64,000 nucleotides of DNA from Amphiscolops sp. MND2022 (taxonomy: Eukaryota), in NCBI GenBank assembly GCA_964187785.1, contig OZ076409.1, positions 75,580,001 through 75,644,000 of the forward strand. Direction: 5' to 3'. Made by a program: the position numbers and the translations under genes. The notes beneath the pieces are model-generated. The model ran no database searches. It was not told the origin of the DNA and saw only the letters and a program-made list of their open reading frames with translations. Positions 1 to 42,592 of the stretch are shown here, piece by piece; the first letter of the stretch is position 1, and each line of letters begins with the position of its first letter.

Positions 1-1035
1 TACTGGCATTTTGCCCAAAAAACGCAAAAAGTTGGTCAAAATCTTAGTTTTTTGGTCAAAAAATGGCGTTTTTTCGAAAAAAAATTTTTTCAGAGACAAT
101 TACTCGTAACTGGTTCACCCAGCGCAAAAACGCCTAGCTGATTTATTGTTGGGCGCTTCATGAGGAGTGCGTATACAAATTTTCGTCCAGATCGGAAGAA
201 AAATGACTAAGTATTAGCCGGAATTCGGACGCATTTTTTCGCAAATTTTTGAAAACCTAGTCTATCTCTGCCGTTTTTTGCCCAGATTTTTTTCCAGGTC
301 CTCTCCTAAAGGCCTCCCCTGGCCGGTTTACTTCCCAGAAAAACCAATTGGCCCTAAATACGGAGTTTCAGCGTTCTAGCATTCCCGGGCGAAAAGATGA
401 GGGACTTAGAAAAAATTCAAAATTTTTCAAAAAAATTTTTTTTCGTTTTCCGGCCCCCCAATGAAGGGGAACGACCCCCCAACGAGGATTTTTGGTGAAT
501 TCACGTGGAAAGGCCTTGTTTTGTGGAGCAAATTGCCGTTTAGAGCAACTTTTTATCTTAACTTGACGTTGACCTCTGTCGTTTTGAATTTGATATTAGT
601 ATGTGTTGAGCATGTGAAAAGTTGATGATTTCAGTTGTTCTCTCGTGTTCAAGCCATTGAGATACAAGCGGTAGTGATCAAAATGTGCTTTATCGCACTT
701 TGATGGTGCTTTTGGTGTATTTTGATTCTTTTAAATAATAAGTTGTTCTTTATATATTTGGTGTATTGATTCAAATGAACAAGAAACAGTTGAGTACATT
801 TCATCTCCCCCCTTGTGGGGGAGATGAGGATGTACCCGCTAAATGACACGCACAATGGCCTAATTTTATTTTTATGCGACCTTTTCTAGGCTTTTGCGCA
901 AGCTCACTAAAATTTAGACTGGTTTCCTTTTCTTTTACTCCAAAATTTTCCGTACTAACCACCTTACGCACCACCAGCTCAACGTAACATGTGTAACGTC
1001 AACGCCACACACTCTCACTAACGCCCACCGTCCGT

Positions 1036-1104
1036 GGGCATGCCGAGGCATGCCCTTCGACGACGTATGCAAATAGCGCCACAGGGCGCAAACATTCCCG
1101 CTAG
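1036..1104 (+). other. Monomer 3' terminal signal (example): hairpin GGGCATGCC-GA-GGCATGCCC, TTCGACGACGTAT, variable segment, CTAG
   Basis: Present in 36 copies, e.g. 1036, 2327, 3612, 4903, 6175 ... 61081, 63049. A GC-rich hairpin followed by CTRR is the established Helitron 3' end signature, although the gap here is longer than usual. Confidence 0.8.
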
Positions 1105-4100
1105 GTGCCGGGATTTCCATTCGATAAGGAATTCTGCGCGTGTGGGTAGGGCCCCTGGCGCGCTCCTGTGTTTTCGGTTTTCCTACTCCAAATTCACACC
1201 CCAGTTATCTCCGATCTCGTAAACTATCCATACGATTTGGCTGAAATTTGGCACACGTACCCCCCTCGGCACGGTGAAGATGATTTCCTACTGACGTTTT
1301 TCCCGCTAAACATTTTTTGTTGACCAAAATAACGGTTTTTGGGGTAAAATTTTCAACTTTTTTTAAATTTTATCTTATATCTCGCCACGGGTACACGCTA
1401 GCGCTTCCAAACCTTGCTGACGAAAGTTTGCAAACTGTCTCAGGAATGCTGTGTGAAATTTTCAGCTCAATCGGACTTAAACTCGAGGAGATATAGCGTT
1501 TTTCCGGAGCGGGGGGGTTTCATTTTTCTAACGGTCCAGCTTATCTTTGCCATTTTTTCGAAAATGCACTCGCCTAAAGGCCTCCCCTGGCCGGTTTTAT
1601 TCCCAGCAAAACCATTTGGCCATAAATACGGAGTTTCAGCGTTCCAGCATTCCCGGGCGAAAAGTTGTGGGACTTAGAAAATTTCAAAAATTTTCAAAAA
1701 TTTTTTTTCCGTTATTTGGGCCCCCAAAGTGGGGGAAAAGACCCCCCAACCAGTAAAGCAAGTGAATGCATGTGCAAAGCCCTTGTTTAGAGGAGAAAAA
1801 TGCCGTTTAGAACGTCTTTTTATCTTGGCTCAACGTTGACTTATGACGTTTTGAAGGTGATGTTTGGAGGTGTAAATCACGTGAATAGTAAACGTTATGA
1901 GTATTTATCTGATCTGAAAGCCATTGAGATGCAATATGGTTTGCTCAAAACGTAATTCATGGCAGTTTGGCAATCAATCAACACCCTTTGTTGTCGTTTG
2001 ACATACTTTTTTGTTGTTATAATAAAAATTTTGTGTATTTGTTCATTTTTTTCTCATCAAATAACTTGAAACAGTTGAGTACATTCCATCCCCCCTTCCG
2101 GGGGAGATGAGAATGTACTCGCAAAAAGCAGCGAATTACGGCCCTTACCTTCCCGAGCTACGCAGTATAAGGATTACATATTGGTTCCGACATTTTCATA
2201 GAGTTAAATCTTGGTAATCTGTCTGGATATGCAGAAAAATCAGCACGTGCCTTTTAATACCAAGTTGCTCACAACGACAATTATTTTATATCAACGCCCC
2301 CATATTTATCAACGCCCCCCGTCCGTGGGCATGCCGAGGCATGCCCTTCGACGACGTATACCAAGATATACATCGAGCGCGTTAGCCTAGGTGCCGGGAT
2401 TTCTATTCATTAAAGTATGTTGCGCGTGTGGGTAGGGCCCCTGGCGCGCTCTTGGGTATGGTGTTCACCAGCTAGGAAATAGGGGTCGATTTTTCGGGAT
2501 CTCCTAAACTAGCCACACGATTTGGCTGAAATTTGGCACACGTACCCCCCTCGGCACGGTGAAGATGATTTCCTACTGACGTTTTTCCCGCAAAATTTTT
2601 TTGTTGTCCAAAATAACGGTTTTTGGGGTAAAATTTTGAATTTTTTTTAAATTTTATCTCTTATCTCGCCACCGGTTTACGCTAGCGCTTCAAAACCCTG
2701 CTAAAGAAAGCTTGCAAACTGTCTCAGGAATGCGGTGTGAAATTTTCAGCTCAATCAGACTTAAACTCGGGGAGATATAGCGTTTTTCCGGAGCGGGGGG
2801 TTTCATTTTTCTAACGGTCCAGCTTATCTTTGCCATTTTTTCGAATATGCACTCGCCTAAAGGCCTCCCCTGGCCGGTTTTATTCCCAGCAAAACCATTT
2901 GGCCCTAAATACGGAGTTTCAGCGTTCCAGCATTCCCGGGCGAAAAGTTGTGGGACTTAGAAAAGTTCAAAAATTTTCAAAAAAAATTTTTTCCGTTTTC
3001 CGCCCTCCCCCCCTAGGGGAAAAGACCCCCCAACCAGTAATTTGAGTGAATTCATGTGGAAAGGCCATGTTTAGAGGAGAAAAATGCCGTTTAGAACGTC
3101 TTTTTATCTTGGCTCAACGTTGACTTATGACGTTTTGAAGGTGATGTTTGGAGGTGTAAAGCACGTGAATAGTAAACGTTATGAGTATTTATCTGATCTG
3201 AAAGCCATTGAGATGAATATGGTTTGCTCAAAACGTAATTCATGGCAGTTTGGCAATCAATCAACACCCTTTGTTGTCGTTTGACATACTTTTTTGTTGT
3301 TATAATAAAAAATTTTGTGTATTTATTCATTTTTTTCTCATCAAATAACTTGAAACAGTTGAGTACATTCCATCCCCCCATTCCGGGGGAGATGAGAATG
3401 TACTCGCAAAAAGCACCGAACTACGGCCCTTACCTTCCCGAGCTACGCAGTATAAGGATTACATATTGGTTCCGACATTTTCATAGAGTTAAATCTTGGT
3501 AATCTGTCTGGATATGCAGAAAAACCAGCACGTGCTTTTTTATACCAAGTTGCTTACAACGACAATTATTTTATATCAACGCCCCCATATTTATCAACGC
3601 CCCCCGTCCGTGGGCATGCCGAGGCATGCCCTTCGACGACGTATACCAAGATATACATCGAGCGCGTTAGCCTAGGTGCCGGTGTCTTTTTACACAATGG
3701 GGGAAGTTGCGCGGTTGGGGAGGGTCCCTGACGCGCTTCCGTGAGATCAGGTTTTTCAACTAGTGAAATCGACAAAGAAAATTGAGATCTCGTAAACTAG
3801 CCATACGATTTGGCTGAAATTTGGCACACGTACCCCCCTCGGCACGGTGAAGATGATTCCCTACTGACGTTTTGCTCGCTAAACATTTTTTGTTGACCAA
3901 AATAACGGTTTTTGGGGTAAAATTTTCAACTTTTTTTAAATTTCATCTTATATCTCGGCACGGGTACACGCTAGCGCTTTCAAACCTTGCTGACGAAAGT
4001 TTGCAAACTGTCTCAGGAATGCTGTGTGAAATTTTCAGCTCAATCGGACTCAAACTCGAGGAGATATAGCGTTTTTCCGGAGCGGGGGGGTTTCATTTTT

Positions 4101-7100
4101 CTAACGGTCCAGCTTATCTTTGCCATTTTTTCGAAAATGTACTCGTCTAAAGGCCTCCCCTGGCCGGTTTTATTCCCAGCAAAACCATTTGGCCCTAAAT
4201 ACGGAGTTTCAGCGTTCCAGCATTTCCGGGCGAAAAGTTGTGGGACTTAGAAAATTTCAAAAATTTTCAAAAAATTTTTTTTCCGTTATTTGGGCCCCCA
4301 AAGTGTGGGAAAAGACCCCCCAACCAGTAAAGCAAGTGAATGCATGTGCAAAGCCCTTGTTTGGACAAGAAAAATGCCGTTTAGAACGTCTTTTTATCTT
4401 GACTCAACGTTGACTTATGACGTTTTGAAGGTGATGTTTGGAGGTGTAAAGCAAGTGAATAGTAAACGTTATGAGTATTTATCTGATCTGAAAGCCATTG
4501 AGATGCAATATGGTTTGCTCAAAACGTAATTCATTGCAGTTTGGCAATCAATCAACACCCTTTGCTGTCGTTTGACATACTTTTTTGTTGTTATAATAAA
4601 AAATTTTGTGTATTTATTCATTTTTTTCTCATCAAATAACTTGGAACAGTTGAGTACATTCCATCCCCCCCTTCCGGGGGAGATGAGAATGTACTCGCAA
4701 AAAGCACCGAACTACGGTCCTTACCTTCCCGAGCTACGCAGTATAAGGATTACATATTGGTTCCGACATTTTCATAGAGTTATATCTTGGTAATCTGTCT
4801 GGATATGCCGAAAAATCAGCACGTGCCTTTTAATACCAAGTTGCTCACAACGACAATTATTTTATATCAACGCCCCCATATTTATCAACGCCCCCCGTCC
4901 GTGGGCATGCCGAGGCATGCCCTTCGACGACGTATACCAAGATATGTTCGAGCGCGTTAGCCTAGGTGCCGGGATTTCCATTCGATAAGGAATTCTGCGC
5001 GTGTGGGTAGGGCCCCTGGCGCGCTCCTGTGTTTTCGGTTTTCCTACTCCAAATTCACACCCCAGTTATCTCCGATCTCGTAAACTATCCATACGATTTG
5101 GCTGAAATTTGGCACACAGCTCCGTTGGAACATTGTAAGAACAAATCCCTACTGACGTTTTGCCCGCTAAACATTTTTTGTTGGTCAAAAATGCGATTTT
5201 CCGACAAAATTTTCGACTTTTTTTTCTTTTTCAACTCATATCTCGCCACAGGGTCACGCTAGCGCTTTGCAATCTATGATCCTTTTTTGTTGGGCATTGC
5301 ATGTAGAACACGTATGCCAAATTTGGTGGCAATCGGACTTAAACTCGGGGAGATATATCGATTTTTTAGGTGCATTTTTTGACATTTTTTGCATTTGCTG
5401 ATTTATCTTTGCCGTTTTTTGCCCAGATTTTTTTTGAGACACTCTCCTAAAGACCTCCCCTGGCCAGTTTACCTCCCAGCAAAACCATTTGGCCCTAAAT
5501 ACGAAGTTTCAGCGTTCTAGCAATCCCGGGCAAAAAATTATGGGACTTAGAAGATTTTTTTGAAAACGCAAAATGTGTAAAGTCAACTTCAGGCCTCCCA
5601 AAGTCAAGGAACTTTCACACAACTAGGATTGCAAGTGGATGCATGTGGAAAGTACTGGGATAGACGAGAAAAATGAGCTATAGAACGACTCTGTAGCTTA
5701 ACTTGACGTTGACTTATGATGTTTTGAATGTGTGCTTGCTAAGGGGTCCGAAATTGAAAATTTTTAAAGAAAATTAATATCGTCAAAAATTCATCGGAAT
5801 GCCTGCAATATACAGTAGAGCGTGTTCAATTGTAGCTGACTAATGCATCAACGCCGTTCAAGGTCTTTTAACTCAGTTTCAAAATTTTTTACACTGTATT
5901 ATCCATCCGAGAGATCGAAACAGTTGAGTACATTCCATCTCCCTCCCGGGGGAGATGAGAATGTACTCGCTAAAGTCCAGATACCACAGCCCATATTTGT
6001 TTCTCTGCAACGCCATCTATGCTACTGCACATAACTACTAATCTCAAGACTGAATTTTGCCTTCACTTTGACTTGACATATGCTGAAGATTTGATCCTTA
6101 CAAACATCATCAATACCTGAACAAAACAATCCTAACATCAACGCCCCACACTCATATCAACGCCCACCGTCCGTGGGCATGCCGAGGCATGCCCTTCGAC
6201 GACGTATGACCACTCAAACGCGGTAGCCGCTAGGTGCCGGGATGACTATTCGATAAAGTATTTTGCGCGGTTGGGTAGGGCCCCGTGAGCGCGCCAGGGG
6301 ATAGTGTTAGAACAACAAGGATTTGGGCATCAGTTGGGAGCGATTTTCTAAACTATCCGTACGATTTTGCTCAAATTTGGCATACGTGTTCCTGAGACAG
6401 ATATAAGAACTAATTCCTACTGGCGTTTTGCCCGGAAAATTCAAAAAGTGGGTCAAAATTGAAATTTTCGGCAAAAAAATGCGATTTTTTTTGAAAAATT
6501 TTTTTTGAGAGGCCATATCTTTTTTCAGGGAGCCCGGAGCGGGACGCGTTAAACTGATTATAAACTCTACAGTTCATGGGCTTTACGGAGAACCTAGGCT
6601 CGTTTCGCTCGGACGAATAGTCTTGGAGATATAACGGTATTTTTCGGGAATTTTTTGAAAATTTTTCAACGGTCCAGCTTATCTTTGCCATTTTTTCGAA
6701 AATGTACTCGCCTAAAGGCCTCCCCCTGGCCGAATTTACTCCCAGCAAAACCATTTGGCCCTAAATACGGAGTTTCAGCGTTCCAGCATTTCCGGGCGAA
6801 AAGTTGTGGGACTTAGAAAAATTTCAAAATTTTTCAAAAAAATTTTTTTTTCGTTTTCCGGCCCGCTTTGAAGGGGAAAGGACCCCCCAACCAGTAATTT
6901 GAGTGAATTCATGTGGAAAGGCCATGTTTAGAGGAGAAAAATGCCGTTTAGATCGTCTTTTTTTTTAACCTGTCGTTGACTTATGTTGTTTTGAAGGTGA
7001 TGTTTGGATGTGTGAAGCATGTGAAAAGGTAATTTATTGTGTCTTTAGCTCTTCTAAAAGCCATTGAGATACACGATGTGTGACTCAGAACGTGTTTAAT

Positions 7101-7229
7101 TCTAATTTAGCAATGCATCAACACTTTTTTGTGTCTTTTGACTCTGTTAAAAAAAATTTTTCCGACTAAAATCAAAAATTATTTATAATTATTCACATTT
7201 TTTTTCTGATCTCATGACTCGAAACAGTT

Positions 7230-7273
7230 GAGTACATTCCATCTCCCTTCCCGGGGGAGATGAGAATGTACTC
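7230..7273 (+). other. Second conserved monomer hairpin (example), ~210 bp upstream of the terminal hairpin
   Basis: GAGTACATTC-CATCTCCC-(loop)-GGGAGATG-A-GAATGTACTC: an 18-bp stem with one bulged A. Found in all standard monomers between divergent flanks. Confidence 0.85.
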
Positions 7274-10200
7274 TTTAGAGACCAGGTACTACAGTACTTA
7301 CCTTCCCCGAGCAACGCCCCATAAAAATTGCGTTCTGACACAGATATTTTGACAAAATTTTATCTTTGTAATTTGACTGGAAATGAAGAAAATGCCGCAC
7401 GTGCTCTTTTATATCAAGTATCTTAACAACGCCATCTCTTTTACGTCAACGCCCCATCCTTGAATCAACGCCCACCGTCCGTGGGCATGCCGAGGCATGC
7501 CCTTCGACGACGTATACCAAGATATACATCGAGCGCGTTAGCCTAGGTGCCGGGATTTCCATTCGATAAGGAATTCTGCGCGTGTGGGTAGGGCCCCTGG
7601 CGCGCTCCTGTGTTTTCGGTTTTCCTACTCCAAATTCACACCCCAGTTATCTCCGATCTCGTAAACTATCCATACGATTTGGCTGAAATTTGGCACACGT
7701 ACCCCCCTCGGCACGGTGAAGATGATTTCCTACTGACGTTTTTCCCGCTAAACATTTTTTGTTGACCAAAATAACGGTTTTTGGGGTAAAATTTTCAACT
7801 TTTTTTAAATTTTATCTTATATCTCGCCACGGGTACACGCTAGCGCTTCCAAACCTTGCTGACGAAAGTTTGCAAACTGTCTCAGGAATGCTGTGTGAAA
7901 TTTTCAGCTCAATCGGACTTAAACTCGAGGAGATATAGCGTTTTTCCGGAGCGGGGGGGTTTCATTTTTCTAACGGTCCAGCTTATCTTTGCCATTTTTT
8001 CGAAAATGCACTCGCCTAAAGGCCTCCCCTGGCCGGTTTTATTCCCAGCAAAACCATTTGGCCCTAAATACGGAGTTTCAGCGTTCCAGCATTCCCGGGC
8101 GAAAAGTTGTGGGACTTAGAAAATTTCAAAAATTTTCAAAAATTTTTTTTCCGTTATTTGGGCCCCCAAAGTGGGGGAAAAGACCCCCCAACCAGTAAAG
8201 CAAGTGAATGCATGTGCAAAGCCCTTGTTTAGAGGAGAAAAATGCCGTTTAGAACGTCTTTTTATCTTGGCTCAACGTTGACTTATGACGTTTTGAAGGT
8301 GATGTTTGGAGGTGTAAATCACGTGAATAGTAAACGTTATGAGTATTTATCTGATCTGAAAGCCATTGAGATGCAATATGGTTTGCTCAAAACGTAATTC
8401 ATGGCAGTTTGGCAATCAATCAACACCCTTTGTTGTCGTTTGACATACTTTTTTGTTGTTATAATAAAAATTTTGTGTATTTGTTCATTTTTTTCTCATC
8501 AAATAACTTGAAACAGTTGAGTACATTCCATCCCCCCTTCCGGGGGAGATGAGAATGTACTCGCAAAAAGCAGCGAATTACGGCCCTTACCTTCCCGAGC
8601 TACGCAGTATAAGGATTACATATTGGTTCCGACATTTTCATAGAGTTAAATCTTGGTAATCTGTCTGGATATGCAGAAAAATCAGCACGTGCCTTTTAAT
8701 ACCAAGTTGCTCACAACGACAATTATTTTATATCAACGCCCCCATATTTATCAACGCCCCCCGTCCGTGGGCATGCCGAGGCATGCCCTTCGACGACGTA
8801 TACCAAGATATGTTCGAGCGCGTTAGCCTAGGTGGCCGTGTCTTTTCGACGTGCTTTTACATCGAGGAGTGGGTAGGGCCCCGCGACGACCTAGAAGAAT
8901 TGGATGCTCACCGAAACGTGCAGAATTCTACGAGATCTCATAGTTTGAGCCATACGATTTTTCTGAAATTTGGCATGTTGCCTGGAATTGGTGAGTAGGT
9001 AAAACGTGTAGGAGGTGATTTTTCCCAAATTCCACTGTGAGACGAGATATGGGCAAATAACGGTCCCAAAAATGGCAAAAATGCACTTTTTTTAACTTTG
9101 TCAGCCCATATCTCGTTCCCAGGTGCCCGGAGCGGGACGCGTTAAGCTGAATATAAACTCTAGGGTGTTGAGGCTGTACGGGGAAGTCAGGCCCGTTCCG
9201 ATCGGACTTGTAGTCTTGGAGAAATAACGGTATTTTTGGGGAACCTTTTCTAACGGTCCAGCTTATCTTTGCCATTTTTTCGAAAATGTACTCGCCTAAA
9301 GGCCTCCCCCTGGCCGAATTTACTCCCAGCAAAACCATTTGGCCCTAAATACGGAGTTTCAGCGTTCCAGCATTCCCGGGCGAAAAGTTGTGGGACTTGG
9401 AAAATTTTCAAAAATTTTCAAAAATTTTTTTTTCGTTTTCCGGGCCCCCAATGAAGGGGAAACGACCCCCCAACCAGTATTTTGAGTGAATTCATGTGGA
9501 AAGCCCTTGTTTTGACGAGAAAAGTACCGTTTAGAACATCTTTTTATCTTGACTCAACGTTGACTTATGACGTTTTGAATGTGATGTAAGGATGTAGGAG
9601 GCATGTGATAAGTTGATGTTTTGAGTCTTTATCTCAAATGAAAGCGGTTGAGATGCAAGCTGTCCTGCTCAAAACGTCTTTCGTTGTAATTTTCCAGTGC
9701 ACCAATACCCTTTGGTGTCATATAAACATTCTTTTCGTCGATATATTAACAATTTTAATGTATTTATTCCAATTTTTATTATCTTTTAACTCAAAACAGT
9801 TGAGTACATTTCATCTCCCTTTCGGGGGAGATGAGAATGTACTCGCTAAAGACCTAGCGCCATGACCAAAAGTTTGAAACCCACGTTTTTTATCTTCTTA
9901 CAGACTTGTTTTTGTATTTTTTCGGAATTTTTTAAAAATTAAAATACTTGAAATACATTACTTGACTTTACTACCACAATCCACCTCCAACGTCAACGCC
10001 CCCTTGCTTGCATCAACGCCCACCGTCCGTGGGCATGCCGAGGCATGCCCTTCGACGACGTATGCCAAATGCCCAGTGCCACGCAGTCATTATCGCTAGG
10101 TGCCGGTGTTTTTTTACACAATGGGGGAAGTTGCGCGGTTGGGGAGGGTCCCTGACGCGCTTCCGTGGTATCGGGTCTTTCAACCGATGAAAACGACATA

Positions 10201-13200
10201 AAAAATTGGGATCTCGTAAACTAGCCATACGATTTGGCTGAAATTTGGCACACGTACCCCCCTCGGCACGGTGAAGATGATTCCCTACTGACGTTTTTCT
10301 CGCTAAACATTTTTTGTTGACCAAAATAACGGTTTTTGGGGTAAAATTTTGAATTTTTTTTAAATTTCATCTTGTATCTCGCCACGGGTTTACGCTAGCG
10401 CTTCCAAACCTTGCTGACGAAAGCTTGCAAACTGTCTCAGAAATGCGGTGTGAAATTTTCAGCTCAATCGGACTCAAACTCGGGGAGATATAGCGTTTTT
10501 CCGGAGCGGGGGGGTTTCATTTTTCTAACGGTCCAGCTTATCTTTGCCATTTTTTCGAAAATGCACTCGCCTAAAGGCCTCCCCTGGCCGGTTTTATTCC
10601 CAGCAAAACCATTTGGCCCTAAATACGGAGTTTCAGCGTTCTAGCATTCCCGGGCGAAAAGTTGTGGGACTTAGAATTTTTCAAAAATTTTCAAAAATTT
10701 TTTTTTCCGTTATTTGGGCCCCCAAAGTGGGGGAAAGCACCCCCCAACCAGTAAAGCAAGTGAATGCATCTGGAAAGCCCTTGTTTAGACAAGAAAAATG
10801 GCGTTTAGAATGTCTTTTTATCTTAACTTGACATTGACTTTTGTCGTTTTGAAGGTGACCGTTAGATACAGAAAATTGATATTTTGAGTATTTATCCCAT
10901 CTGAAAGCCATTGAGATACAACATGTTTTGCTCAAAACGTGTTTCATTGCAGTTCCGCTGTCCATTGACACCCTTTGATGTCTTTTGACGTAATTTTCTT
11001 TTCTATAATAACAATTTTTTGTGTATTTATTCATTTTTTTCTCATCAAATAACTTGAAACAGTTGAGTACATTCCATCTCCCTTCCCGGGGGAGATGAGA
11101 ATGTACTCGCTAAAGGTCAGGAACTACGGTCTATATCTTCCACAACACAAAAGCAATTGAAAATTGTTTCAGTTTGTCGCAGAAAACTTTTCTTTTTGCA
11201 CTCAGTGACTCGGCAAAGTGAACGATTTTGACCCATATTGAATCTTACTTTACCACAACTCATCTCTAACGTCAACGCCCCCCACACACATCAACGCCCC
11301 CCGTCCGTGGGCATGCCGAGGCATGCCCTTCGACGACGTATAACAAAATATATTCGAACGCGGTAGCCGCTAGGTGGCCGTGTCTTTTCGACGTGCTTTT
11401 GCATCGAGGAGTGGGTAGGGCCCCGCGACGACCTAGAAGAATTGGATGCTCACCGAAACGTGCAGAATTCTACGAGATCTCATAGTTTGAGCCATACGAT
11501 TTTTCTGAAATTTGGCATGTGGCCTGGAATTGGTGAGTAGGTAAAACGTGTAGGAGGTAATTTTTCCCAAATTCCATTGTGAGAGGAGATATGGGCAAAT
11601 AACGGACCCAAAAATGGGGAAAATGCACTTTTTTCAAGTTTGTCAGCCAAAATCTCATTTCCAGGTGCCCGTAGCGTCCCGCACGTGGACGTCAATATTG
11701 CTCAGCGCTGTTAGAGGAGTGCGTGGACAAATTTTGGTTGAAATCGGACGAAAACGTGAGGAGAAATTAACGGTTTTCCGGGTGTTTCCGGGTTAAAATT
11801 TTTAACGGTCCAGCTTATCTTTGCCATTTTTTCGAAAATGTACTTGCCTAAAGGCCTCCCCCTGGCCGAATTTCCTCCCAGCAAACCCATTTGGCCCTAA
11901 ATACGGAGTTTCAGCGTTCCAGCATTTCCGGGCGAAAAGTTGTGGGACTTAGAAAAATTTCAAAATTTTTCAAAAAATTTTTTTTCGTTTTCCGGGCCCC
12001 CAATGAAGGGGAACGACCCCCCAACCAGTATTTTGAGTGATTGCATATCGAAAGCCCTTGTTTTGACGAGAAAAATACCGTTTCGAACATCTTTTTATTT
12101 TAACTTGGCGTTGACTTATGACGTTTTGAATGTGATGTTAGGATGTGTGAGGCATGTGAAAAGTTGATGTTTTGAGTATTTATCTCATGTGAAAGCGATT
12201 GAGATACAAGCTGTTTCGCTCAAAACGGGTTTCATCGTAATTTCGCAGTGCATCATTGACCTTTGTTGTCTTTTGAAGAATTTTTTCTTCATATAACAAC
12301 AATTTTGGTGTGTTTCTTCCAATTTTTCTCATCTTCTAATTTGAAACAGTTGAGTACATTTCATCTCCCTTTCGGGGGAGATGAGAATGTACTCGCTAAA
12401 AACCTAGTGCTTTTGCGCCGCAATGTTTGCAAAAGTTGTTATTATTGCTGTTCCATCAGCATTTTCTAACTGACTTTTTTAAAACTATCAATTAACTTGA
12501 AGTACATTACTTGAACTTACTACTAATACCATACATCTCTAACGACAACGCACCCTGCTTGCATCAACGCCCACCGTCCGTGGGCATGCCGAGGCATGCC
12601 CTTCGACGACGTATGCCAAATACCAAATGCCACGCTGTCATTATCGCTAGGTGGCCGTGTCTTTTCGACGTGCTTTTGCATCGAGGAGTGGGTAGGGCCC
12701 CGCGACGACCTAGAAGAATTGGATGCTCACCGAAACGTGCAGAATTCTACGAGATCTCATAGTTTGAGCCATACGATTTTTCTGAAATTTGACATGTGGC
12801 CTGGAATTGGTGAGTAGGTAAAACGTGTAGGAGGTAATTTTTCCCAAATTCCATTGTGAGAGGAGATATGGGCAAATAACGGACCCAAAATTGGGGAAAA
12901 TGCACTTTTTTCAAGTTTGTCAGCCAAAATCTCATTTCCAGGTGCCCGTAGCGTCCCGCACGTGGACGTCAATATTGCTCAGCGCTGTTAGAGGAGTGCG
13001 TGGACAAATTTTGGTTGAAATCGGACGAAAACGTGAGGAGAAATTAACGGTTTTCCGGGTGTTTCCGGGTTAAAATTTTTAACGGTCCAGCTTATCTTTG
13101 CCATTTTTTCGAAAATGTACTTGCCTAAAGGCCTCCCCTTGGCCGAATTTCCTCCCAGCAAACCCATTTGGCCCTAAATACGGAGTTTCAGCGTTCCAGC

Positions 13201-16200
13201 ATTTCCGGGTGAAAAGTTGTGGGACTTAGAAAAATTTCAAAATTTTTCAAAAATTTTTTTTTCGTTTTCCGGGCCCCCAATGAAGGGGAACGACCCCCCA
13301 ACCAGTATTTTGAGTGATTGCATATCGAAAGCCCTTGTTTTGACGAGAAAAATACCGTTTCGAACATCTTTTTATTTTAACTTGGCGTTGACTTATGACG
13401 TTTTGAATGTGATGTTAGGATGTGTGAGGCATGTGAAAAGTTGATGTTTTGAGTCTTTATCTCATGTGAAAGCGATTGAGATACAAGCTGTTTCGCTCAA
13501 AACGGGTTTCATCGTAATTTCGCAGTGCATCATTGACCTTTGTTGTCTTTTGAAGAATTTTTTCTTCATATAACAACAATTTTGGTGTGTTTCTTCCAAT
13601 TTTTCTCATCTTCTAATTTGAAACAGTTGAGTACATTTCATCTCCCTTTCGGGGGAGATGAGAATGTACTCGCTAAAAACCTAGTGCTTTTGCGCCGCAA
13701 TGTTTGCAAAAGTTGTTATTATTGCTGTTCCATCAGCATTTTCTAACTGACTTTTTTAAAACTATCAATTAACTTGAAGTACATTACTTGAACTTACTAC
13801 TAATACCATACATCTCTAACGACAACGCACCCTGCTTGCATCAACGCCCACCGTCCGTGGGCATGCCGAGGCATGCCCTTCGACGACGTATGCCAAATAC
13901 CAAATGCCACGCTGTCATTATCGCTAGGTGCCGGTGTTTTCTTCACTTTTGAGGAAGTTGCGCGTGTGGGTAGGGCCCCTGGCGCGCTCCGTTGTCCCTG
14001 TGTTTACATCTTAGAAAATTTGAAAAAAAAATTGAGATCTCGAGAACTCTCCTAACGATTTGGCTAAAATTTTGCATGCGGCTTCCTATAACAATTCTAA
14101 GAACTAATCCCTAGTGGCGTTTTGCCCGGAAAATTTTTTTTGTTGACTTATTCACAATTTTAGGTCCGAAAAATGGCGTTTTTTCGAAAAATTTTTTTTC
14201 AAGAGCCCATATCTCACTCCCAGTTGCCCGGAGCGATTCGTACGTGGACGTGATATTGCTGGGCACTTCATCAGGAGTCCGTATACAAATTTTCGTCTAA
14301 ATCGGATAAAAATTGACTAAGTAATAGCCGCAAAACGGACGCATTTTTCCGACATTTTTCGAAAACCTAGTCTATCTCTGCCGTTTTTTGCCCAGATTTT
14401 TTTTGAGACACTCTCCTAAAGACCTCCCCTGGCCGGTTTACCTCCCAGCAAAACCATTTGGCCCTAAATACGAAGTTTCAGCGTTCTAGCATTCCCGGGC
14501 GAAAAGTTGTGGGACTTAGAAAAAATTTTTGAAAACGCAAAATGTGTAAAGTCAACTTCAGGCCTCCCAAAGTCAAGAAACTTCCACACAACTAGGATTG
14601 CAAGTGAATGCATGTAGAAAGTACTCGAATAGACGAGAAAAATGAGCTATAGAACGACTCTGTAGCTTAACTTGACGTTGACTTATGACATTTTGAGTGT
14701 GAGCTTGCTTTGTGATAAAAAATGCAAAACATGAAAATGGAAGCAAAGTCTCGTCGAAAACCCATCGGAACACGTTTAATTCATCCCAGAGCGGTTTATT
14801 TACTGCTGTCTAATGCAGCAACACCATTCAAGATCATTTGACTCATTTTTATAAGTTTTGATTTTGTCTTATTCATCCGATAGCACAAAACAGTTGAGTA
14901 CATTCCATCTCCCCTCCGTGGGAGATGAGAATGTACTCGCTAAAGTCCAGGTACTACAGCCCATATTTGTTTTTATGCGATGCTCTTTATGCTAGTGAGC
15001 ATATGTGTTAATCTTTTAACTGAATTTTTTTTCGTCTGTACTTTGATTTTGACTTGACATATACTGAACGTTTTGTCCTTACAACATACGCATGACTAAC
15101 GTCAACGCCCCATCCTTGCATCAACGCCCACCGTCCGTGGGCATGCCGAGGCATGCCCTTCGACGACATATAGCCAAATATATTCGAACGCGGTAGCCGC
15201 TAGGTGGCCGTGTCTTTTCGACGTGCTTTTGCATTGAGGAGTGGGTAGGGCCCCGCGACGACCTAGAAGAATTGGATGCTCACCGAAACGTGCAGAATTC
15301 TACGAGATCTCATAGTTTGAGCCATACGATTTTTCTGAAATTTGGCATGTGGCCTGGAATTGGTGAGTAGGTAAAACGTGTAGAAGGTAATTTTTCCCAA
15401 ATTCCACTGTGAGAGGAGATATGGGCAAATAACGGACCCAAAAATGGCAAAAGTGCACATTTTTCAACTTTGTCAGCCAATATCTCTTTTCCAGGTGCCC
15501 GTAGCGTTCCGCACGTGGACATCAATATTGCTCAGCGCTGTTGGAGGAGTGCGTGGACAAATTTTGGTTGAAATCGGACTTAAACTTGACGAGAAATTAA
15601 CGGTTTTTTGGGCGTTTCCGGGGTAAATTTTTTAACGGTCCAGCTTATCTTTGCCATTTTTTCGAAAATGTACATGCCTAAAGGCCTCCCCCTGGCCGAA
15701 TTTACTCCCAGCAAACCCATTTGGCCCTAAATACGGAGTTTCAGCGTTCCAGCATTCCGGGGCGGAAAGTTGTGGGACTTGGAAAAATTTCAAATTTTTT
15801 TCAAAATTTTTTTTCCCGTTTTCCGGGCCCCCAATGAAGGGGAACGACCCCCCAACCAGTATTTTGAGTGAATTCATGTGGAACGCCCATGTTTGGAGGA
15901 GAAAAATGCCGTTTAGAACATCTTTTTATCTTAACTTGACATTGACTTATGACGTTTTGAATGTGATGTTAGGATATATGAAGCATGTTAAAAGTTGAAG
16001 TTTTGAGTCTTTATCTCATCGGAAAACCATTGAGATACAAGCAGTTTTGCTAAAAACGATTTTCATTGTAGGTTAGCAGAGTATTAGTACACTTTGATGT
16101 CATTTGAGTATTTTTTTCTTCTATATAATAACTGTTTTTATGTATTTATTCCAATTTATCTCATCTTTTAACATCAAGCAGTTGAGTACATTTCATCTCC

Positions 16201-19200
16201 CTTTCGGGGGAGATGAGAATGTACTCGCTAAAAAACTAATGCTTTGGCGCCAATGTTTGGATGGGAAGTTTTCTATGCTTTGAAAAAAGTTATTTTTAAT
16301 TACTTGATTTTTTAAAACAATAATTAACATGAAGTACATTACTTGCTCCTACTACTACCACCATACATCTCTAACGTCAACGCCCCCTGCTTGCATCAAC
16401 GCCCCATCGTCCGTGGGCATGCCGAGGCATGCCCTTCGACGACGTATGCCAAATGCCCAGTGCCACGCAGTCTTTCCCCGCTAGGTGCCGGGATTTCCAT
16501 TCGATAAGGAATTCTGCGCGTGTGGGTAGGGCCCCTGGCGCGCTCCTGTGTTTTCGGTTTTCCTACTCCTAAATAGACCCCCTGAATTCCGGGATCTCCC
16601 AAACTATCCATACGATTTGGCTGAAATTTGGCACACGTACCCCCCTCGGCACGGTGAAGATGATTTCCTACTGACGTTTTTCCCGCTAAACATTTTTTGT
16701 TGACCAAAATAACGGTTTTTGGGGTAAAATTTTGAACTTTTTTTAAATTTCATCTTATATCTCGCCACGGGTACACGCTAGCGCTTCCAAACCTTGCTGA
16801 CGAAAGTTTGCAAACTGTCTCAGGAATGCTGTGTGAAATTTTCAGCTCAATCGGACTTAAACTCGAGGAGATATAGCGTTTTCCCGGAGCGGGGGGGTTT
16901 CAATTTTCTAACGGTCCAGCTTATCTTTGCCATTTTTTCGAAAATGCACTCGCCTAAAGGCCTCCCCTGGCCGGTTTTATTCCCAACAAAACCATTTGGC
17001 CCTAAATACGGAGTTTCAGCGTTCCAGCATTCCCGGGCGAAAAGTTGTGGGACTTAGAAAAGTTCAAAAATTTTCAAAAAAAAATTTTTCCGTTATTTGG
17101 GCCCTCAAAGTGGGGGAAAAGACCCCCCAACCAGTAAAGCAAGTGAATGCATGTGGAAAGCCCTTGTTTAGACGAGAAAAATGCCGTCTAGAACGTCTTT
17201 TTATCTTAACTTGACATTGACTTTTGTCGTTTTGAAGGTGACCGTTAGATACGGAAAATTGATGTTTTGAGTATTTATCCCATCTGAAAGCCATTGAGAT
17301 ACAACATGTTTTGCTCAAAACGTGTTTCATTGCAGTTTCGCTGTCCATTATCACCCTTTGGTGTCTTTTCACGTAATTTTCGTTTCTATAATAACAATTT
17401 TTTTGTGTATTTATTCATTTTATTCTCATCAAATAACTTGAAACAGTTGAGTACATTCCATCTCCCTTCCCGGGGGAGATGAGAATGTACTCGCTAAAGG
17501 TCAGGAACTACGGTCTATATCTTCCACAACACAAATGGGATTGCAAATGGTTTCAGTTTGTCGCAGAAAACTTCTTTTTGCCCTCTGTGACTCGACAAAA
17601 TGAACGTTTCTTACTTACTTTGAAACTCAGCATACCACAACTCATCTCTAACGTCAGCGCCCCCCTACTTGCATCAACGCCCACCGTCCGTGGGCATGCC
17701 GAGGCATGCCCTTCGACGACGTATACCAAGATATACCTGGAGCGCGGTAGCCGCTAGGTGCCGGTGTTTTTTTACACAATGGGGGATGTTGCGCGGTTGG
17801 GGAGGGTCCCTGACGCGCTTCCGTGGTATCGGGTCTTTCAACCGATGAAAACGACATAAAAAATTGGGATCTCGTAAACTAGCCATACGATTTGGCTGAA
17901 ATTTGGCACACGTACCCCCCTCGGCACGGTGAAGATGATTCCCTACTGACGTTTTTCCCGCTAAACATTTTTTGTTGACCAAAATAACGGTTTTTGGGGT
18001 AAAATTTTCAACTTTTTTTCAATTTCATCTTATATCTCGCCACGGGTACACGCTAGCGCTTCCAAACCTTGCTGACGAAAGTTTGCAAACTGTCTCAGGA
18101 ATGCGGTGTGAAATTTTCAGCTCAATCGGACTCAAACTCGAGGAGATATAGCGTTTTTCCGGAGCGGGGGGGTTTCATTTTTCTAACGGTCCAGCTTATC
18201 TTTGCCATTTTTTCGAAAATGCACTCGCCTAAAGGCCTCCCCTGGCCGGTTTTATTCCCAGCAAAACCATTTGGCCCTAAATACGGAGTTTCAGCGTTCC
18301 AGCATTCCTGGGCGAAAAGTTGTGGGACTTAGAAAAGTTGAAAAATTTTCAAAAAAATTTTTTCCGTTATTTGGGCCCTCAAAGTGGGGGAAAAGACCCC
18401 CCAACCAGTAAAGCAAGTGAATGCATGTGGAAAGCCCTTGTTTAGACGAGAAAAATGCCGTTTAGAACGTCTTTTTATCTTAACTTGACATTGACTTTTG
18501 TCGTTTTGAAGGTGACCGTTAGATACGGAAAATTGATGTTTTGAGTATTTATCCCATCTGAAAGCCATTGAGATACAACATGTTTTGCTCAAAACGTGTT
18601 TCATTGCAATTTCGCTGTCCATTATCACCCTTTGATGTCTTTTCACGTAATTTTCGTTTCTATAATAACAATTTTTTGTGTATTTATTCATTATTTTCTC
18701 ATCAAATAACTTGAAACAGTTGAGTACATTCCATCTCCCTTCCCGGGGGAGATGAGAATGTACTCGCTAAAGGTCAGGAACTACGGTCTATATCTTCCAC
18801 AACACAAAAGGGATTGCAAATGGTTTCAGTTTGTCGCAGAAAACTTCTTTTTGCCCTCTGTGACTCGACAAAATGAACGTTTCTTACTTACTTTGAAACT
18901 CAGCATACCACAACTCATCTCTAACGTCAGCGGCCCCCCTACTTGCATCAACGCCCACCGTCCGTGGGCATGCCGAGGCATGCCCTTCGACGACGTATAC
19001 CAAGATATACCTGGAGCGCGGTAGCCGCTAGGTGCCGGGATTTCTATTCGATAAAGTATGTGGCGCGTGTGGGTAGGGTCCCTGGCGCGCTCTTGGGTAT
19101 GGTGTTCACCAGCTAGGAAATAGGGGTCGATTTTTCGGGATCTCCTAAACTAGCCACACGATTTGGCTGAAATTTGGCACACGTACCCCCCTCGGCACGG

Positions 19201-22200
19201 TGAAGATGATTTCCTACTGACGTTTTTCCCGCAAAATTTTTTTTGTTGTCCAAAATAACGGTTTTTGGGGTAAAATTTTGAATTTTTTTTAAATTTTATC
19301 TTATATCTCGCCACCGGTTTACGCTAGCGCTTCAAAACCCTGCTAAAGAAAGCTTGCAAACTGTCTCAGGAATGCGTTGTGAAATTTTCAGCTCAATCGG
19401 ACTTAAACTCGGGGAGATATAGCGTTTTTCCGGAGCGGGGGGGTTTCATTTTTCTAACGGTCCAGCTTATCTTTGCCATTTTTTCGAAAATGCACTCGCC
19501 TAAAGGCCTCCCCTGGCCGGTTTTACTCCCAGCAAAACCATTTGGCCCTAAATACGGAGTTTCAGCGTTCCAGCATTCCGGGGCGAAAAGTTGTGGGACT
19601 TAGTAAATTTCAAAAATTTTCAAAAAATTTTTTTTTCGTTATTTGGGCCCCCAAAGTGGGGGAAAAGACCCCCAACCAGTAATTTGAGTGAATTCATGTG
19701 GAAAGGCCATGTTTAGCGGAGAAAAATGCCTTTTAGATCGTCTTTTTATTTTAACCTGTTGTTGACTTATGTTGTTTTGAAGGTGATGTTTGGATGTGTG
19801 AAGCATGTGAAAAGGTAATTTTTCGTGTCTTTATCTCTTCTAAAAGCCATTGAGATGCAATCTGTTTTGCTCAAAACGTAATTCAACGCAATTTGGCAGT
19901 CAATGAACACAATTTGGTGTCTTTTGTTATATTTTTCTGTTGATATAATAAAAAATTTTGTGTCTTTATTCATTTTTTTTAAATAAAATAACTTGAAACA
20001 GTTGAGTACATTCCATCCCCCCTTCCGGGGGAGATGGAAATGTACTCGCTAAAAGCCGCGAACAAGAGCCCATACCTTCCTGCGGTACGCAGTATAAAGA
20101 TTGCATGTTGGTTCCGACTTTTTGGTAGTGTTATATCTTGGTAATTTGACTGAATATGGAGAAAAATCAGCACGTGCTCTTTTATAGCAAGTTGCTGACA
20201 ACGACAATTTTTATTTATCAACGCCCCCATATTTATCAACGTCCCCCGTCCGTGGGCATGCCGAGGCATGCCCTTCGACGACGTGCACCAAGATATACCC
20301 CAAGCGCGTTAGCCTAGGTGCCGGGATTTCTATTCGATAAAGTATTTTGCGCGGTTGGGTAGGGCCCCGTGAGCGCGCCAGGGGATTGTGTTAGAACAAC
20401 CGGAAATTCGGCATACGATTTTGACAATTTTCTAAACTATCCATACGATTTGGCTCAAATTTGGCATACGGGTTCCTGAGACAGATATAAGAACTAATTC
20501 CTACTGGCGTTTTGCCCGGAAAATTTTTTTTGTTGCCCAAAATAGAAATTTTCGGCAAAAAAATGCGATTTTTTTTGAAAATTTTTTTTTGAGAGGCCAT
20601 ATCTTTTTTCAGGGTGCCCGGAGCGGGACGCGTTAAACTGATTATAAACTCTACGGTTCATGGGCTTTACGGAGAACCTAAGCTCGTTTCGCTCGGACAA
20701 ATAGTCTGGGAGATATAACGGGATTTTTCGGGAATTTTTTGAAAATTTTTCTAACGGTCCAGCTTATCTTTGCCATTTTTTTCAAAAATGCACTCGCCTA
20801 AAGGCCTCCCCTGGCCGGTTTTATTCCCAGCAAAACCATTTGGCCCTAAATACGGAGTTTCAGCGTTCCAGCATTCCCGGGCGAAAAGTTGTGGGACTTA
20901 GAAAAATTTCAAAATTTTTCAAAAAATTTTTTTCCGTTTTCCGCCCTCCCCCCCGAGGGGAAAAGACCCCCAACCAGTAATTTGAGTGAATTCATGTGGA
21001 AAGGCCATGTTTAGAGGAGAAAAATGCCGTTTAGATCGTCTTTTTATTTTAACCTGTCGTTGACTTATGTTGTTTTGAAGGTGATGTTTGGATGTGTGAA
21101 GCATGTGAAAAGGTAATTTATTGTGTCTTTAGCTCTTCTAAAAGCCATTGAGATACAAGGTGTAGCACTCAGAACGTGTTTAATTCTAAATTAGCAATGC
21201 ATCAACACTTTTTGTGTCTTTGGACTCTGTTAAAAAAATTTTTCCGACTAAAATCAAAAATTATTTATAATTATTCACATTTTTTTTCTGATCTCATGAC
21301 TCGAAACAGTTGAGTACATTCCATCTCCCTTCCCGGGGGAGATGAGAATGTACTCTCTAAAGACCAGGTACTACAGTACTTACCTTCCCCGAGCAACGCC
21401 CCATAAAAATTGCGTTTTGATCATTCTATTTTGACATAATTCTATCTTTGTAATTTGACTGGAAATGAAGAAAATCCGCACGTGCTCTTTTATATCAAGT
21501 ATCTTAACAACGCCATCTCTTTAACGTCAACGCCCCATAGTTCACATCAACGCCCACCGTCCGTGGGCATGCCGAGGCATGCCCTTCGACGACGTATGCC
21601 AAAGATATTCCCGAGCGCGTTAGCCTAGGTGCCGGGATTTCTATTCGATAAAGTATGTGGCGCGCCTTGGGTAGGGTCCCTTGCGCGCTCTTGGGTATGG
21701 TGTTCACCAGCTAGGAAACAGGGGTCGATTTTTCGGGATCTCGTAAACTAGCCACACGATGTGGCTGAAATTTGGTACACGTACTCCCCTCGGCACGGTG
21801 AAGATGATTTCCTACTGACGTTTTTCCCGCAAAATTTTTTTTGTTGTCCAAAATAACGGTTTTTGGGGTAAAATTTTGAATTTTTTTTAAATTTTATCTT
21901 ATATCTCGCCACCGGTTTACGCTAGCGCTTCAAAACCCTGCTAAAGAAAGCTTGCAAACTTTCTCAGGAATGCGGTGTGAAATTTTGAGCTCAATCGGAC
22001 TTAAACTCAGGGAGATATAGCGTTTTTCCGGAGCGGGGGGGTTTCATTTTTCTAACGGTCCAGCTTATCTTAGCCATTTTTTCGAAAATGTACTCACCTA
22101 AAGACCTCCCCTGGCCGGTTTTATTCCCAGCAAAACCATTTGGCCCTAAATACGGAGTTTCAGCGTTCCAGCATTCCCGGGCGAAAAGTTGTGGGACTTA

Positions 22201-25200
22201 GAAAAATTCAAAAATTTTCAAAAAAATTTTTTTCCGTTTTCCGCCCTCCCCCCCTAGGGGAAAAGACCCCCCAACCAGTAATTTGAGTGAATTCATGTGG
22301 AAAGGCCATGTTTAGACGAAAAATTGCCGTTTAGAACGTCTTTCTATCTCAACCTGACATTGACTTATGAAGCTTTAAAGGTGATGTTTGGACGTGTGAA
22401 GCATGTAAAAAAAGGAATTTTTTTGATTTTATTTCATCAGAAAGTCATTGAATCACACGCTGTGAAGCCCAGAGCGTGGTTTCTAATAGTTTGGTATCGT
22501 TTAAACGCATTTTGGTGTCTTTTTACTCTGTTTAAAAAACTTTTCTCCTGAAAATTAATAAATTTTGATTACTTTTCTTACTTTCCATTAATTTTTTTTT
22601 CTTATATTTTTACTTGAAACAGTTGAGTACATTCCATCTCCCTTCCCGGGGGAGATGAGAATGTACTCGCAAAAAGCCGCGAACTACGGCCCATACCTTC
22701 CCGAGATACGCAGTATAAAGATAACATAATGGTCCAGACATTTTAATGGAGTTGTATCTTGGTAATATGTCTGGATTTGCAGAAAAATCAGCACGTGCCA
22801 TTTTATACCAAGTTGCTCGCAACGACAATTAATTTAAATCAACGCCCCCCACAAAAATCAACGCCCCCCTGTCCGTGGGCATGCCGAGGCATGCCCTTCG
22901 ACGACGTGCACCAAAATATGCCCCGAGCGCGGTAGCAGCTAGGTGCCCGGATTTCTATTCATTAAAGTATGTTGCGCGTGTGGGTAGGGCCCCTGGCGCG
23001 CTCTTGTGTCCCTGTTCTCATAACTGCAATTTCCGGCAGCATTCTGAGCGATTTTCTAAACTATCCATACGATTCGGCTGAAATTTGGCACACGCACTCC
23101 CCTCGGCACGGTGAAGATGATTTCCTACTGACGTTTTTCCCGCAAAATTTTTTTTGTTGTCCAAAATAACGGTTTTTGGGGTAAAATTTTGAACTTTTTT
23201 TAAATTTCATCTTATATCTCGCCACGGGTTTACGTTAGCGCTTCAAAACCCTGCTAAAGAAAGCTTGCAAACTGTCTCAGGAATGCGGTGTGAAATTTTC
23301 AGCTCAATCGGACTTAAACTCAGGGAGATATAGTGTTTTTCCGGAGCGGGGGGGTTTCATTTTTCTAACGGTCCAGCTTATCTTTGCCATTTTTTCGAAA
23401 ATGCACTCGCCTAAAGGCCTCCCCTGGCCGGTTTTATTCCCAAGAAAACCATTTGGCCCTAAATACGGAGTTTCAGCGTTCCAGCATTCCCGGGCGAAAA
23501 GTTGTGGGACTTAGAAAAGTTCAAAAGTTTTCAAAAAATTTTTTTTCCGTTTTCCGCCCTCCCACCCTAGGGGAAAAGACCCCCCAACCAGTAATTTGAG
23601 TGAATTCATGTGGAAAGGCCATGTTTAGAGGAGAAAAATACCGTTTAGATCGTCTTTTTATCTTTATTCAACGTTGACTTATGACGTTTTGAAGGTGATG
23701 TTTGGAGGTGTGAAGCACGTGAAAAGTAAACGTTATGAGTACTTATCTGATCTGAAAGCCATTGAGATGCAACCTGTTTTGCTCAAAACGTAATTCATAT
23801 CAGTTTGGTAGTCAATCAACACCCTTTGTTGTCATTTGACATCTTTTTTTGTTGATATAAGAAAAAATTTTGTGTATTTATTCATTTTTTTCTCATCAAA
23901 TAACTTGAAACAGTTGAGTACATTCCATCCCCCCTTCACGGGGGAGATGAGAATGTACTCGCAAAAAGCCCCGAACTACGGCCCTTACCTTCCTGAGCTA
24001 CGCAGTATAAAGATTGCATATTGGTTCCGACATTTTGATAGAGTTAAATCTTGGTAATCTGTCTGGGTATGCAGAAAAACCAGCACGTGCTTTTTTATAC
24101 CAAGTTGCTCACAACGACATTTATTTTATATCAACGCCCCCATATTTATCAACGCCCCCCGTCCGTGGGCATGCCGAGGCATGCCCTTCGACGACGTATA
24201 CCAAGATATACTTCGAGCGCGTTAGCCTAGGTGCCGGGATTTCTATTCGTTCGAGTATGTGGCGCGTGTGGGTAGGGCCCCTGGCGCGCTCTTGTGTTTC
24301 GGGTTTTCCTACTCCTAAACCGGGTTCAGATTTTCGGGATCTCGTAAACTAGCCATACGATTTGGCTGAAATTTGGCACACGTACCCCCCTCGGCACGGT
24401 GAAGATGATTCCCTACTGACGTTTTGCCCGCTAAACATTTTTTGTTGACCAAAATAACGGTTTTTGGTGGAAAATTTTTGATTTTTTTTAAATTTCATCC
24501 TATATCTCGCCACGGGTTTACGCTAGCGCTTCAAAATCTTGCTGACGAAAGTTTGCAAACTGTCTCAGGAATGCGGTGTGAAATTTTCAGCTCAATCGGA
24601 CATAAACTCGGGGAGATATCGCGTTTTTCCGGAGCGGGGGGGTTTCATTTTTCTAACGGTCCAGCTTATCTTTGCCATTTTTTCGAAAATGCACTCGCCT
24701 AAAGGCCTCCCCTGGCCGGTTTTACTCCCAAAAAACCATTTGGCCCTAAATACGGAGTTTCAGCGTTCTAGCATTCTCGGGCGAAAAGTTGTGGGACTTA
24801 GAAAATTTCAAAAATTTTCAAAAAAAAATTTTTTTGTTATTTGGGCCCCCAAAGTGGGGGAAAGGACCCCCCAACCATTAATTTGAGTGAATGCATGTGC
24901 AAAGCCCTTGTATAGAGGAGAAAAATGCCGTTTAGAACGTCTTTTTATCTTTACTCAACGTTGACTTATGACGTTTTGAAGGTGACCGTTAGATATGGAA
25001 AATTGATGTTTTGAGTATTTATCTCATCTGAAAGCCATTGAGATACAACATGTTTTGCTCAAAACGGGTTTCATTGCAGTTTCGCTGTCTATTAACACCC
25101 TTTGGTGACTTTTGACATATTTTTGCTTTTATATAAAACCAATTTTTTGTGCATTTTTTTCTTTTTTTTTTCATCTAATATCTTGAAACAGTTGAGTACA

Positions 25201-41700: not shown

Positions 41701-41737
41701 CCAATTTCTGTATATCTACACCCACCCGCGGTAGCAG
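35761..41737 (+). repeat. Three atypical long monomers (1402, 2380, 2195 bp) with the same termini but divergent or expanded interiors
   Basis: Bounded by hairpin+CTAGGTG at 35761, 37163, 39543 and 41738. Interiors are only partly alignable to the standard monomer. Confidence 0.8.
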
Positions 41738-42592
41738 CTAGGTGGCCGCGTCTTTTAGATGGACTTTTAGCCCTGAGGCGCGGGTAGGGTCCTGCGCCGA
41801 CCTGGTGAAAATATACTCCTGGCAAATGGCCCGAATCGGAGACGATCTCAAAACTGGCCCGTACGATTTTCCTGAAAATTTGCATGTGGCCCCCAATTGG
41901 CGAGCAATGAAAAAGTGTAGGAGGTCATTTTCTCCTGGTTTCATTGTGAGACGAGATATATGAAAAAAACGGACCCCAAAATGACGAAATTTTCACTTTT
42001 TGACCATTAATGCAGCATTATCTCCCCGGACAATGCTCGGAGCAAAATTTGTCAGGACCCAAACTTACAACAGACTGTTAGAGCAGTGCACACAGTAATT
42101 TTGAAGGAAATCCGATAATCACATGTTGAGAAATTAACGATTTTCCGACAAAATTTTTTGCATTTGCAGTCTATCTCTGCCGTTTTTTGCCCTGATTTTT
42201 TTCCAGACCCTCTCCTAAAGACCTCCCCTGGCCGGTTTACCTCCCAAAAAAACCATTTGGCCCTAAATACGAAGTTTCAGCGTTCTAGCATTCCCCAGTG
42301 AAAAGTTATGGGACTTAGAATTTTTTCAAAAATTTTCAAATTTTTTCTAAAAGAGTTCAGACCGCCCAAAGTGAAGAAACTTCCACTCAACTAGTATTGC
42401 AAGTGAATGCATGTGGAAAGTACTCGGTAGGGCGAGAAAAATGCGCTATAAAACGTCTCTCTATCTTAACTTGACGTTGACTTATAATGTTTTGAGTATG
42501 AGCTTGCTAAGGCGTCCGAAAGTCAAAATTTGAAAATGGAGTTATTTGACTGCACAAATTCCTATAAAGTAGGTGATTTAGTTATTATAAAC

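Follow-up and report, generated by a model that had tools for sequence, protein, structure and literature searches.

Along a 64,000-nucleotide stretch of genomic DNA (the whole stretch analysed, hereafter the window), identical upstream segments are followed by different downstream modules, and the change of neighbour falls within the heptanucleotide CTAGGTG. The question raised by this locus is what the word is, and why neighbours should reassort at it. The original prediction held it to be a site of nicking and rejoining. On sequence grounds, CTAG^GTG (the caret marks the break) is the seam at which the end of one GTG...CTAG unit meets the start of the next, in what appears to be a divergent Helitron-like family, and we hypothesize that chromosomal self-targeting at existing seams is probably the main builder of their mixed, one-directional arrays. 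The units have defined ends, insert at CTNG^DT without duplicating the target, meet in a seam that itself matches that target, stand beside near-random neighbours, and include distant families that have this seam in common.

Units of the array and the word that joins them

The window is a head-to-tail array of non-coding units of about 1.28 kb together with one 15.6-kb unit that holds a gene. Its features are as follows:

1..41741, + strand: array of non-autonomous units of 1.27-1.40 kb, with one of 2.38 kb; continues to the left of the window
1105..2390, + strand: non-autonomous unit GTG...CTAG of 1,286 bp, which ends at the examined junction
2077..2120, + strand: internal conserved palindrome of the 1.28-kb units (switch index, defined below, 0.03-0.26)
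2327..2346, + strand: subterminal 9-bp right-end hairpin, 38-59 bases before the unit end
2387..2393, + strand: unit junction CTAG^GTG, with the break between 2390 and 2391
2430..2441, + strand: left-end motif GGG(T/G)AGGG, some 39 bases in from the 5' end
1101 to 63118, + strand: the other 35 junctions of the window
41742..57322, + strand: autonomous unit of 15,581 bp with the same ends, GTG...CTAG
57323..64000, + strand: array resumes with units of 1.27, 1.28 and 1.97 kb and extends to the right of the window

CTAGGTG occurs 36 times on the + strand, at the places quoted in the original prediction, where about three occurrences are expected from composition; it is found once on the - strand, and its spacing is mostly 1.27-1.31 kb. 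The tail ACATCGAGCGCGTTAGC precedes three different heads (at 2387, 3672 and 7543), the tail GTTCGAGCGCGTTAGC precedes different heads at 4962, 8828, 28061 and 34487, and the further pairings that had been pointed out (12647 with 13924, and 17754 with 19028) are present as well. Upstream of each heptamer stands a variable tail with the conserved hairpin, and downstream of it a variable head with the GGG(T/G)AGGG motif. All 36 hairpin-bearing tails in the window run into CTAGGTG, and the bases at -1 and +1 are variable; the invariance is therefore not circular. Outside the window position 3 of the word varies, since 170 hairpin tails gave 163 CTAGGTG, 3 CTGGGTG and 4 without a junction. Tails ending in CTTG (rare) and CTGG are found in arrays, and position 3 of the CTNG end travels with the tail.

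The array at 1..41741 comprises several families in near-random order. In 226 units from several arrays, the hairpin is present in 218 (with a variant in which G-C is replaced by an A-T pair in 22 of 215 copies), and the GGG(T/G)AGGG motif in 220 of 226, covering all families. Terminal inverted repeats were not detected, the longest match in 226 units being 4-9 bases and not above that of shuffled heads. Non-coding units of 1.28 kb, though strongly different in their remaining parts, retain the palindrome and further invariant blocks. Degenerate internal copies of the hairpin tail lie at 39255-39320 and 41455-41510, in units of 2.2-2.4 kb, with no CTAG after them.

The linkage test proposed with the prediction was run, and the expected sharp drop at CTAGGTG was borne out. 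In 29 adjacent unit pairs from the window, the correlation between distances at informative columns to the left and to the right has its global minimum at the heptamer (rho -0.01 to -0.04 for three sizes of column window); with the smallest size (15 columns) two internal places are nearly as low (0.05 and 0.07), so that the units are mosaic inside too. A switch index (1 denoting free reassortment) was computed over 100 adjacent pairs from several arrays. Out of 147 units with lengths of 1.26-1.32 kb, the 125 that could be aligned were used and 22 divergent ones were dropped. The index is 0.86 across exactly the heptamer, against a median of 0.11 and a maximum of 0.54 elsewhere. The prediction was to be given up if linkage decayed no faster at CTAGGTG than at other conserved blocks, and longer blocks of this kind gave 0.26-0.33. 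Internal switching has lesser peaks, 0.42 and 0.54, at unit consensus columns of about 120-150 and 680-720; the palindrome at 2077..2120 was considered as a reassortment point and rejected on its index of 0.03-0.26.

Association between head and tail types, measured in 226 units from eight stretches, is strong within a unit, where the two lie 1-15 kb apart (NMI 0.76 vs 0.52 shuffled, z=25.7), and weak across the junction (NMI 0.57 vs 0.52 shuffled, z=4.9); neighbours have the same head type in 18% of cases vs 13% expected. The heptamer is thus the main reassortment point, with others inside units, and the shuffling is incomplete. The weaker internal mosaicism would come from ordinary recombination between units. 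The original argument that seven bases are too short for homologous exchange is insufficient alone, as the flanking units are homologous; what counts is that exchange is concentrated at the heptamer and not in conserved blocks of 19 and 36 bases.

Unit ends, target sites and the candidate transposase

Dispersed copies, compared with unoccupied versions of the same loci, define the ends. One unit within a repeat reads GTCC[GTG...CTAG]TTC, and 5 of 5 paralogues have the empty site GTCC^TTC; a second reads CTTG[GTG...CTAG]ATT, again with an empty CTTG^ATT in 5 of 5 paralogues; and a third site is empty in 7 of 7 other loci. Filled and empty sites differ by no target-site duplication. The insertion at GTCC^TTC has no base in common with its target, which identifies GTG and CTAG as the ends and leaves no duplicated base, and for the same reason (no base shared with either end) the heptamer was rejected as a tyrosine-recombinase overlap or a target duplication. 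The empty sites place the break between G4 and G5 of CTAGGTG and so support the proposed role of this unit boundary as the nick/rejoin site, which, from HUH chemistry, it very probably is. The conception of the heptamer as one recognition word gave way, however: it consists of the 3' end of one unit, CTAG, and the 5' end of the next, GTG.

Thirteen targets of full-length dispersed units or short arrays, taken from 60 fetched edges and two earlier loci (the remaining fetched edges were truncated, longer than the fetch, or inside arrays), give the consensus CTNG^DT, with C in 12/13, T in 13/13, any base, and G in 12/13 before the break, and A, G or T and then T (13/13) after it. Three of the 13 have a verified empty site, and one (L124) is the end of another repeat. 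The tetranucleotides are CTAG, CTTG, CTCG, CTGG and GTCC; right edges have T at +2 in 54 of 57 and C at +1 in 0 of 57. None of the 13 targets is A^T, and a preference for T^T is likewise absent. The dispersed targets being CTNG^DT, the junction CTAG^GTG itself matches the target.

Other determinants were considered and rejected. The element's own end does not guide the target as a rule, for a CTAG-ended unit stands after CTTG and after GTCC, and a CTTG-ended array after CTGG; nor does the sequence spanning the junction fold in a special way, z being -0.3 to -2.3 in five regions of this kind, with the hairpin alone constant. A search with one head class for left edges at non-CTAG targets returned, as its sole match, a copy already known.

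About 39 of the 60 fetched dispersed right ends (L068-L123) look 5'-truncated, many to 15-200 bases, in a sample selected on tails and with lengths that depend on an incomplete tail library. These copies have a precise join of CTAG to DT and no CTNG at the left, which suggests that the 3' join was made first or survives better. One of them, L110 (G000:C4:63901824), is flanked by a target duplication of 10-12 bases starting at the nick, the one convincing case of a duplication in the 39. Another dispersed repeat has CTGG at its end and TT beyond it (the left flank of L124; also L046, L073, L092 and L115), and one short array begins exactly where this repeat stops; the repeat may be a relative, its end having been used as a target.

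The autonomous unit carries a candidate transposase gene:

44513..52585, + strand: predicted transposase gene in three exons, 2,599 aa, with GT-AG introns at 45558-45756 and 50761-50834

The spliced frame has no internal stop; we infer the splicing from the sequence and from single-ORF homologues. The order of the predicted protein is OTU-like domain, HUH-Y2 Rep, Pif1 helicase and a degenerate GIY-YIG-like C terminus, and it is collinear with single-ORF relatives of OTU-Rep-helicase order. ORFs of the 15,581-bp interval match Helitron_like_N (PF14214, E 1e-7) and PIF1 (PF05970). The window protein has intact EFQ..HxH and YxxxY motifs, which most of 54 long relatives have too, and the GIY-YIG-like C-terminal domain, degenerate in the window copy, is found in 41 of these 54. 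The modelled Rep region resembles the Helraiser transposase in fold (7LCC; Foldseek E 5e-5; Z 14.0, rmsd 3.8 over 212 residues); in sequence, the Rep gives no match to Helraiser at E<=10 and the helicase a weak one. Profile searches, in which divergence could hide matches, found neither DUF6570 nor AP endonuclease in the window ORFs or in 29 relatives. The clade is large (245 clusters at E<=1e-10); a protein atlas yielded Helitron_like_N clusters only. One metagenome contig, too short to hold unit ends, carries a Rep that is 72% identical. Downstream of the transposase lies a second ORF (54961-55935, 324 aa) with a Cys-rich end and without a Pfam match, followed by short frames.

Relation to known rolling-circle elements

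By analogy, the element appears to work like a Helitron with IS91-type target choice. The broad features of Helitron-like elements are present, namely a two-tyrosine HUH Rep, a fused Pif1-like helicase and no target duplication. With HLE1 elements, and Helraiser in particular, as they are described in PMC4778049, PMC5876387 and PMC13404089, it shares the combination of HUH-Y2 Rep and Pif1 helicase, the Rep fold, a 3' hairpin, the CTAG end and the lack of target duplication, as well as precise right-to-left end junctions and head-to-tail arrays, including tandem and centromeric ones. The 3' arrangement of HLE1 (a hairpin and then CTRR) is found here in the CTAG and CTGG ends; the 5' TC is replaced by GTG, and the A^T target, at which Helraiser inserts (PMC4778049), by CTNG^DT. 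It follows from this target that the junction here is itself a target, whereas the canonical CTAG^TC is not an A^T site. The elements also differ from canonical Helitrons in a hairpin 38-59 bases from the end, in families mixed at random, and in the C-terminal GIY-YIG-like domain.

An OTU domain upstream of the Rep, a likeness to HLE2 (Helentron/Helitron2), is reported for both HLE1 and HLE2 (PMC11417382); the terminal inverted repeats and T^T target of HLE2 are not features of the present elements. The HELIANO survey, as cited here, distinguishes two clades and a few unclassified clusters, and gives GIY-YIG in one moss HLE2 family only, where it was captured (PMC11417382). Self-insertion of Fusarium HLE2 is reported anecdotally, as nested copies and not exactly at junctions (PMC5148889). 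The nearest precedent for site-specific insertion, compared by description, is the Paramecium Helitrons, which form a clade outside HLE1 and HLE2, have long ORFs and insert with site specificity and orientation bias, with an end, CCAA, that resembles their target (PMC13085455). That target is a host telomeric repeat (PMC13085455), whereas here it is the elements' own junction, and the flanks are ordinary host DNA or other units and not telomeric repeats; GIY and OTU do not appear in the main text of that paper (PMC13085455).

The bacterial IS91 family offers a Y2 HUH enzyme, no target duplication and a tetranucleotide target resembling the terminal cleavage site (PMC13181058), with the targets CTTG, GTTC, GTCC and CTCG, all having T in second place (PMC13181058). 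Its members are small and without a helicase (PMC13181058), in contrast to the 2,599 aa and helicase found here, and megabase mixed arrays are not described for the family in the parts of that account cited here (PMC13181058). Replitrons resemble the present elements as eukaryotic HUH transposons with apparent short direct repeats at their ends (PMC10288648), but have a Y1 Rep without helicase (PMC10288648), and the apparent repeat here is composed of host target and element end. A new clade is not established by these comparisons, since the elements are set apart from HLE1 and HLE2 by features and not by a tree.

Growth of mixed one-directional arrays

A 31-base word from the hairpin is found 4,022 times in the 1.07-Gb genome, in clusters. 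For one tail class, 1,870 of 1,938 ends lead into GTG(G/C) and 68 into other bases, a few sequence contexts falling outside the search patterns. On C1, each of 18 samples taken between 70.7 and 76.2 Mb proved to be array in + orientation, and two samples beyond are non-array; this one-directional array is about 6 Mb long, contains 32 Rep matches, all +, and starts after a host CTAG, array left edges being host CTAG and CTTG. Units of 1.0 to 15.6 kb alternate in the arrays, and four autonomous units within arrays, with Rep 34, 40, 42 and 100% identical, each begin with GTG and end with CTAG. The autonomous unit of the window has 99% identical copies elsewhere, with other neighbours. Internal CTNG^DT sites number 486 in 226 units, and none of the 226 junctions derives from one; only 21 of the internal sites have the form CTAG^DT, so that part of the bias toward junctions comes from a simple preference for CTAG. 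Internal insertions do occur, as in the dispersed array L119, and copy counts reflect amplification and survival besides targeting.

These arrays could grow by the following route. The HUH transposase would nick and rejoin single strands at CTAG^GTG. From the chemistry of Helraiser, whose circle is cleaved on the + strand exactly where right end meets left end (PMC5876387), and of IS91, the + strand would be peeled from the nick at this seam and form a circle that has CTAG^GTG at its junction once more, and this circle would be joined into a target nicked after CTNG. As every left end in an array follows CTAG, the site at which the transposase starts would double as a perfect target, so that one site could serve both as donor origin and as target. 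Insertion may be focused on seams if the enzyme binds the conserved left-end motif or the right-end hairpin, and each insertion would turn one seam into two.

Against this route stands an explanation with the same nick site, in which mixed multimers are assembled off the chromosome (by circles joining circles at junctions, or by capture of a left end by another unit's right end) or lifted out of arrays already present by read-through of right ends, and go into CTNG^DT sites as blocks. Families are indeed mixed already in short dispersed arrays of 2-8 units (L078, L089, L113, L124; L010/L011), and end bypass is established for Helraiser (PMC4778049). Residual linkage across junctions fits as well: the z of 4.9, the 18% vs 13% of like heads, and flanks that are moderately alike in 3/22 comparisons (2.5% background) indicate that some units moved or were duplicated together. 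The same 22 comparisons, made on 11 near-identical pairs (19 of 226 units have a near-identical partner), yielded no near-identical flank, which argues that long blocks are seldom copied intact, and a 6-Mb array in one orientation would need repeated in-register joining at the chromosome. We therefore regard off-chromosome assembly as the chief rival to chromosomal self-targeting, though an unlikely one. Somewhat less likely again is growth of the arrays by host recombination, with Rep nicks at the junction shuffling units through template switches or precise excisions and without true integration of circles. The internal mosaicism shows that recombination is active, and a nick would free a 3' end exactly at the seam; such a process would poorly unite families that have little in common beyond their ends (1.0-15.6 kb; Rep 34-42% identical), and integration is demonstrated by the precise insertions at dispersed sites.

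For tandem Helitrons, which have been described before, the published explanation is rolling-circle concatemers (PMC5148889, PMC5876387). Applied here, concatemers of single elements mixed later by unequal crossing-over would agree with some single-type runs, but predict that neighbours are alike, that each tail is followed by its own head, and that breakpoints are scattered across homologous sequence. Near-identical neighbours are found in 0 of 218 cases and moderately alike ones in 9 of 218 (5.6 expected), and switching peaks at the heptamer, so that this reading is largely refuted and very improbable. That the assembly joined repeat copies at random is the least credible of all: the joins fall at one heptamer and not in long shared blocks, mixed arrays lie between unique host flanks with a clean target, and the ends are confirmed by empty sites.

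A rolling-circle transposon whose seam matches its target is more than a satellite boundary. If self-targeting at seams is the builder, it would be a route from transposon to megabase tandem array without concatemers or unequal crossing-over, with the element creating its own harmless target, and the enzyme would be a eukaryotic rolling-circle transposase with a preferred site, which bears on the open question of target choice by Helitron-like enzymes. A landing site that regenerates after a scarless insertion of 1-15 kb could serve DNA stacking, and intact, 99% identical autonomous copies are available for reconstitution. The clade is invisible to tools that seek TC...CTRR or inverted repeats, and a search of the open literature (subscription journals, Repbase reports and bioRxiv supplements lying outside it) found no junction-targeting or self-targeting Helitron and no GIY-YIG clade. 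It is an even call whether these elements represent an undescribed, widespread Rep-helicase-GIY-YIG clade whose junction is its own preferred target, that is, eukaryotic integron-like cassettes in which dozens of families, autonomous as well as non-autonomous, with one landing site doubling at each insertion, grow into megabase one-directional domains.

The samples of the 6-Mb array on C1 (L160-L177) vary, consisting mostly of 1.28-kb units, or of 2.0-kb units, or of units without the hairpin. Near a contig end, G000:C2:102.0-103.9 Mb holds 16 Rep matches, the first eight - and the last eight +, as if two arrays stood back to back; further Rep clusters lie at C1:3.5, C3:2.5-3.8 and C9:3.4 Mb.
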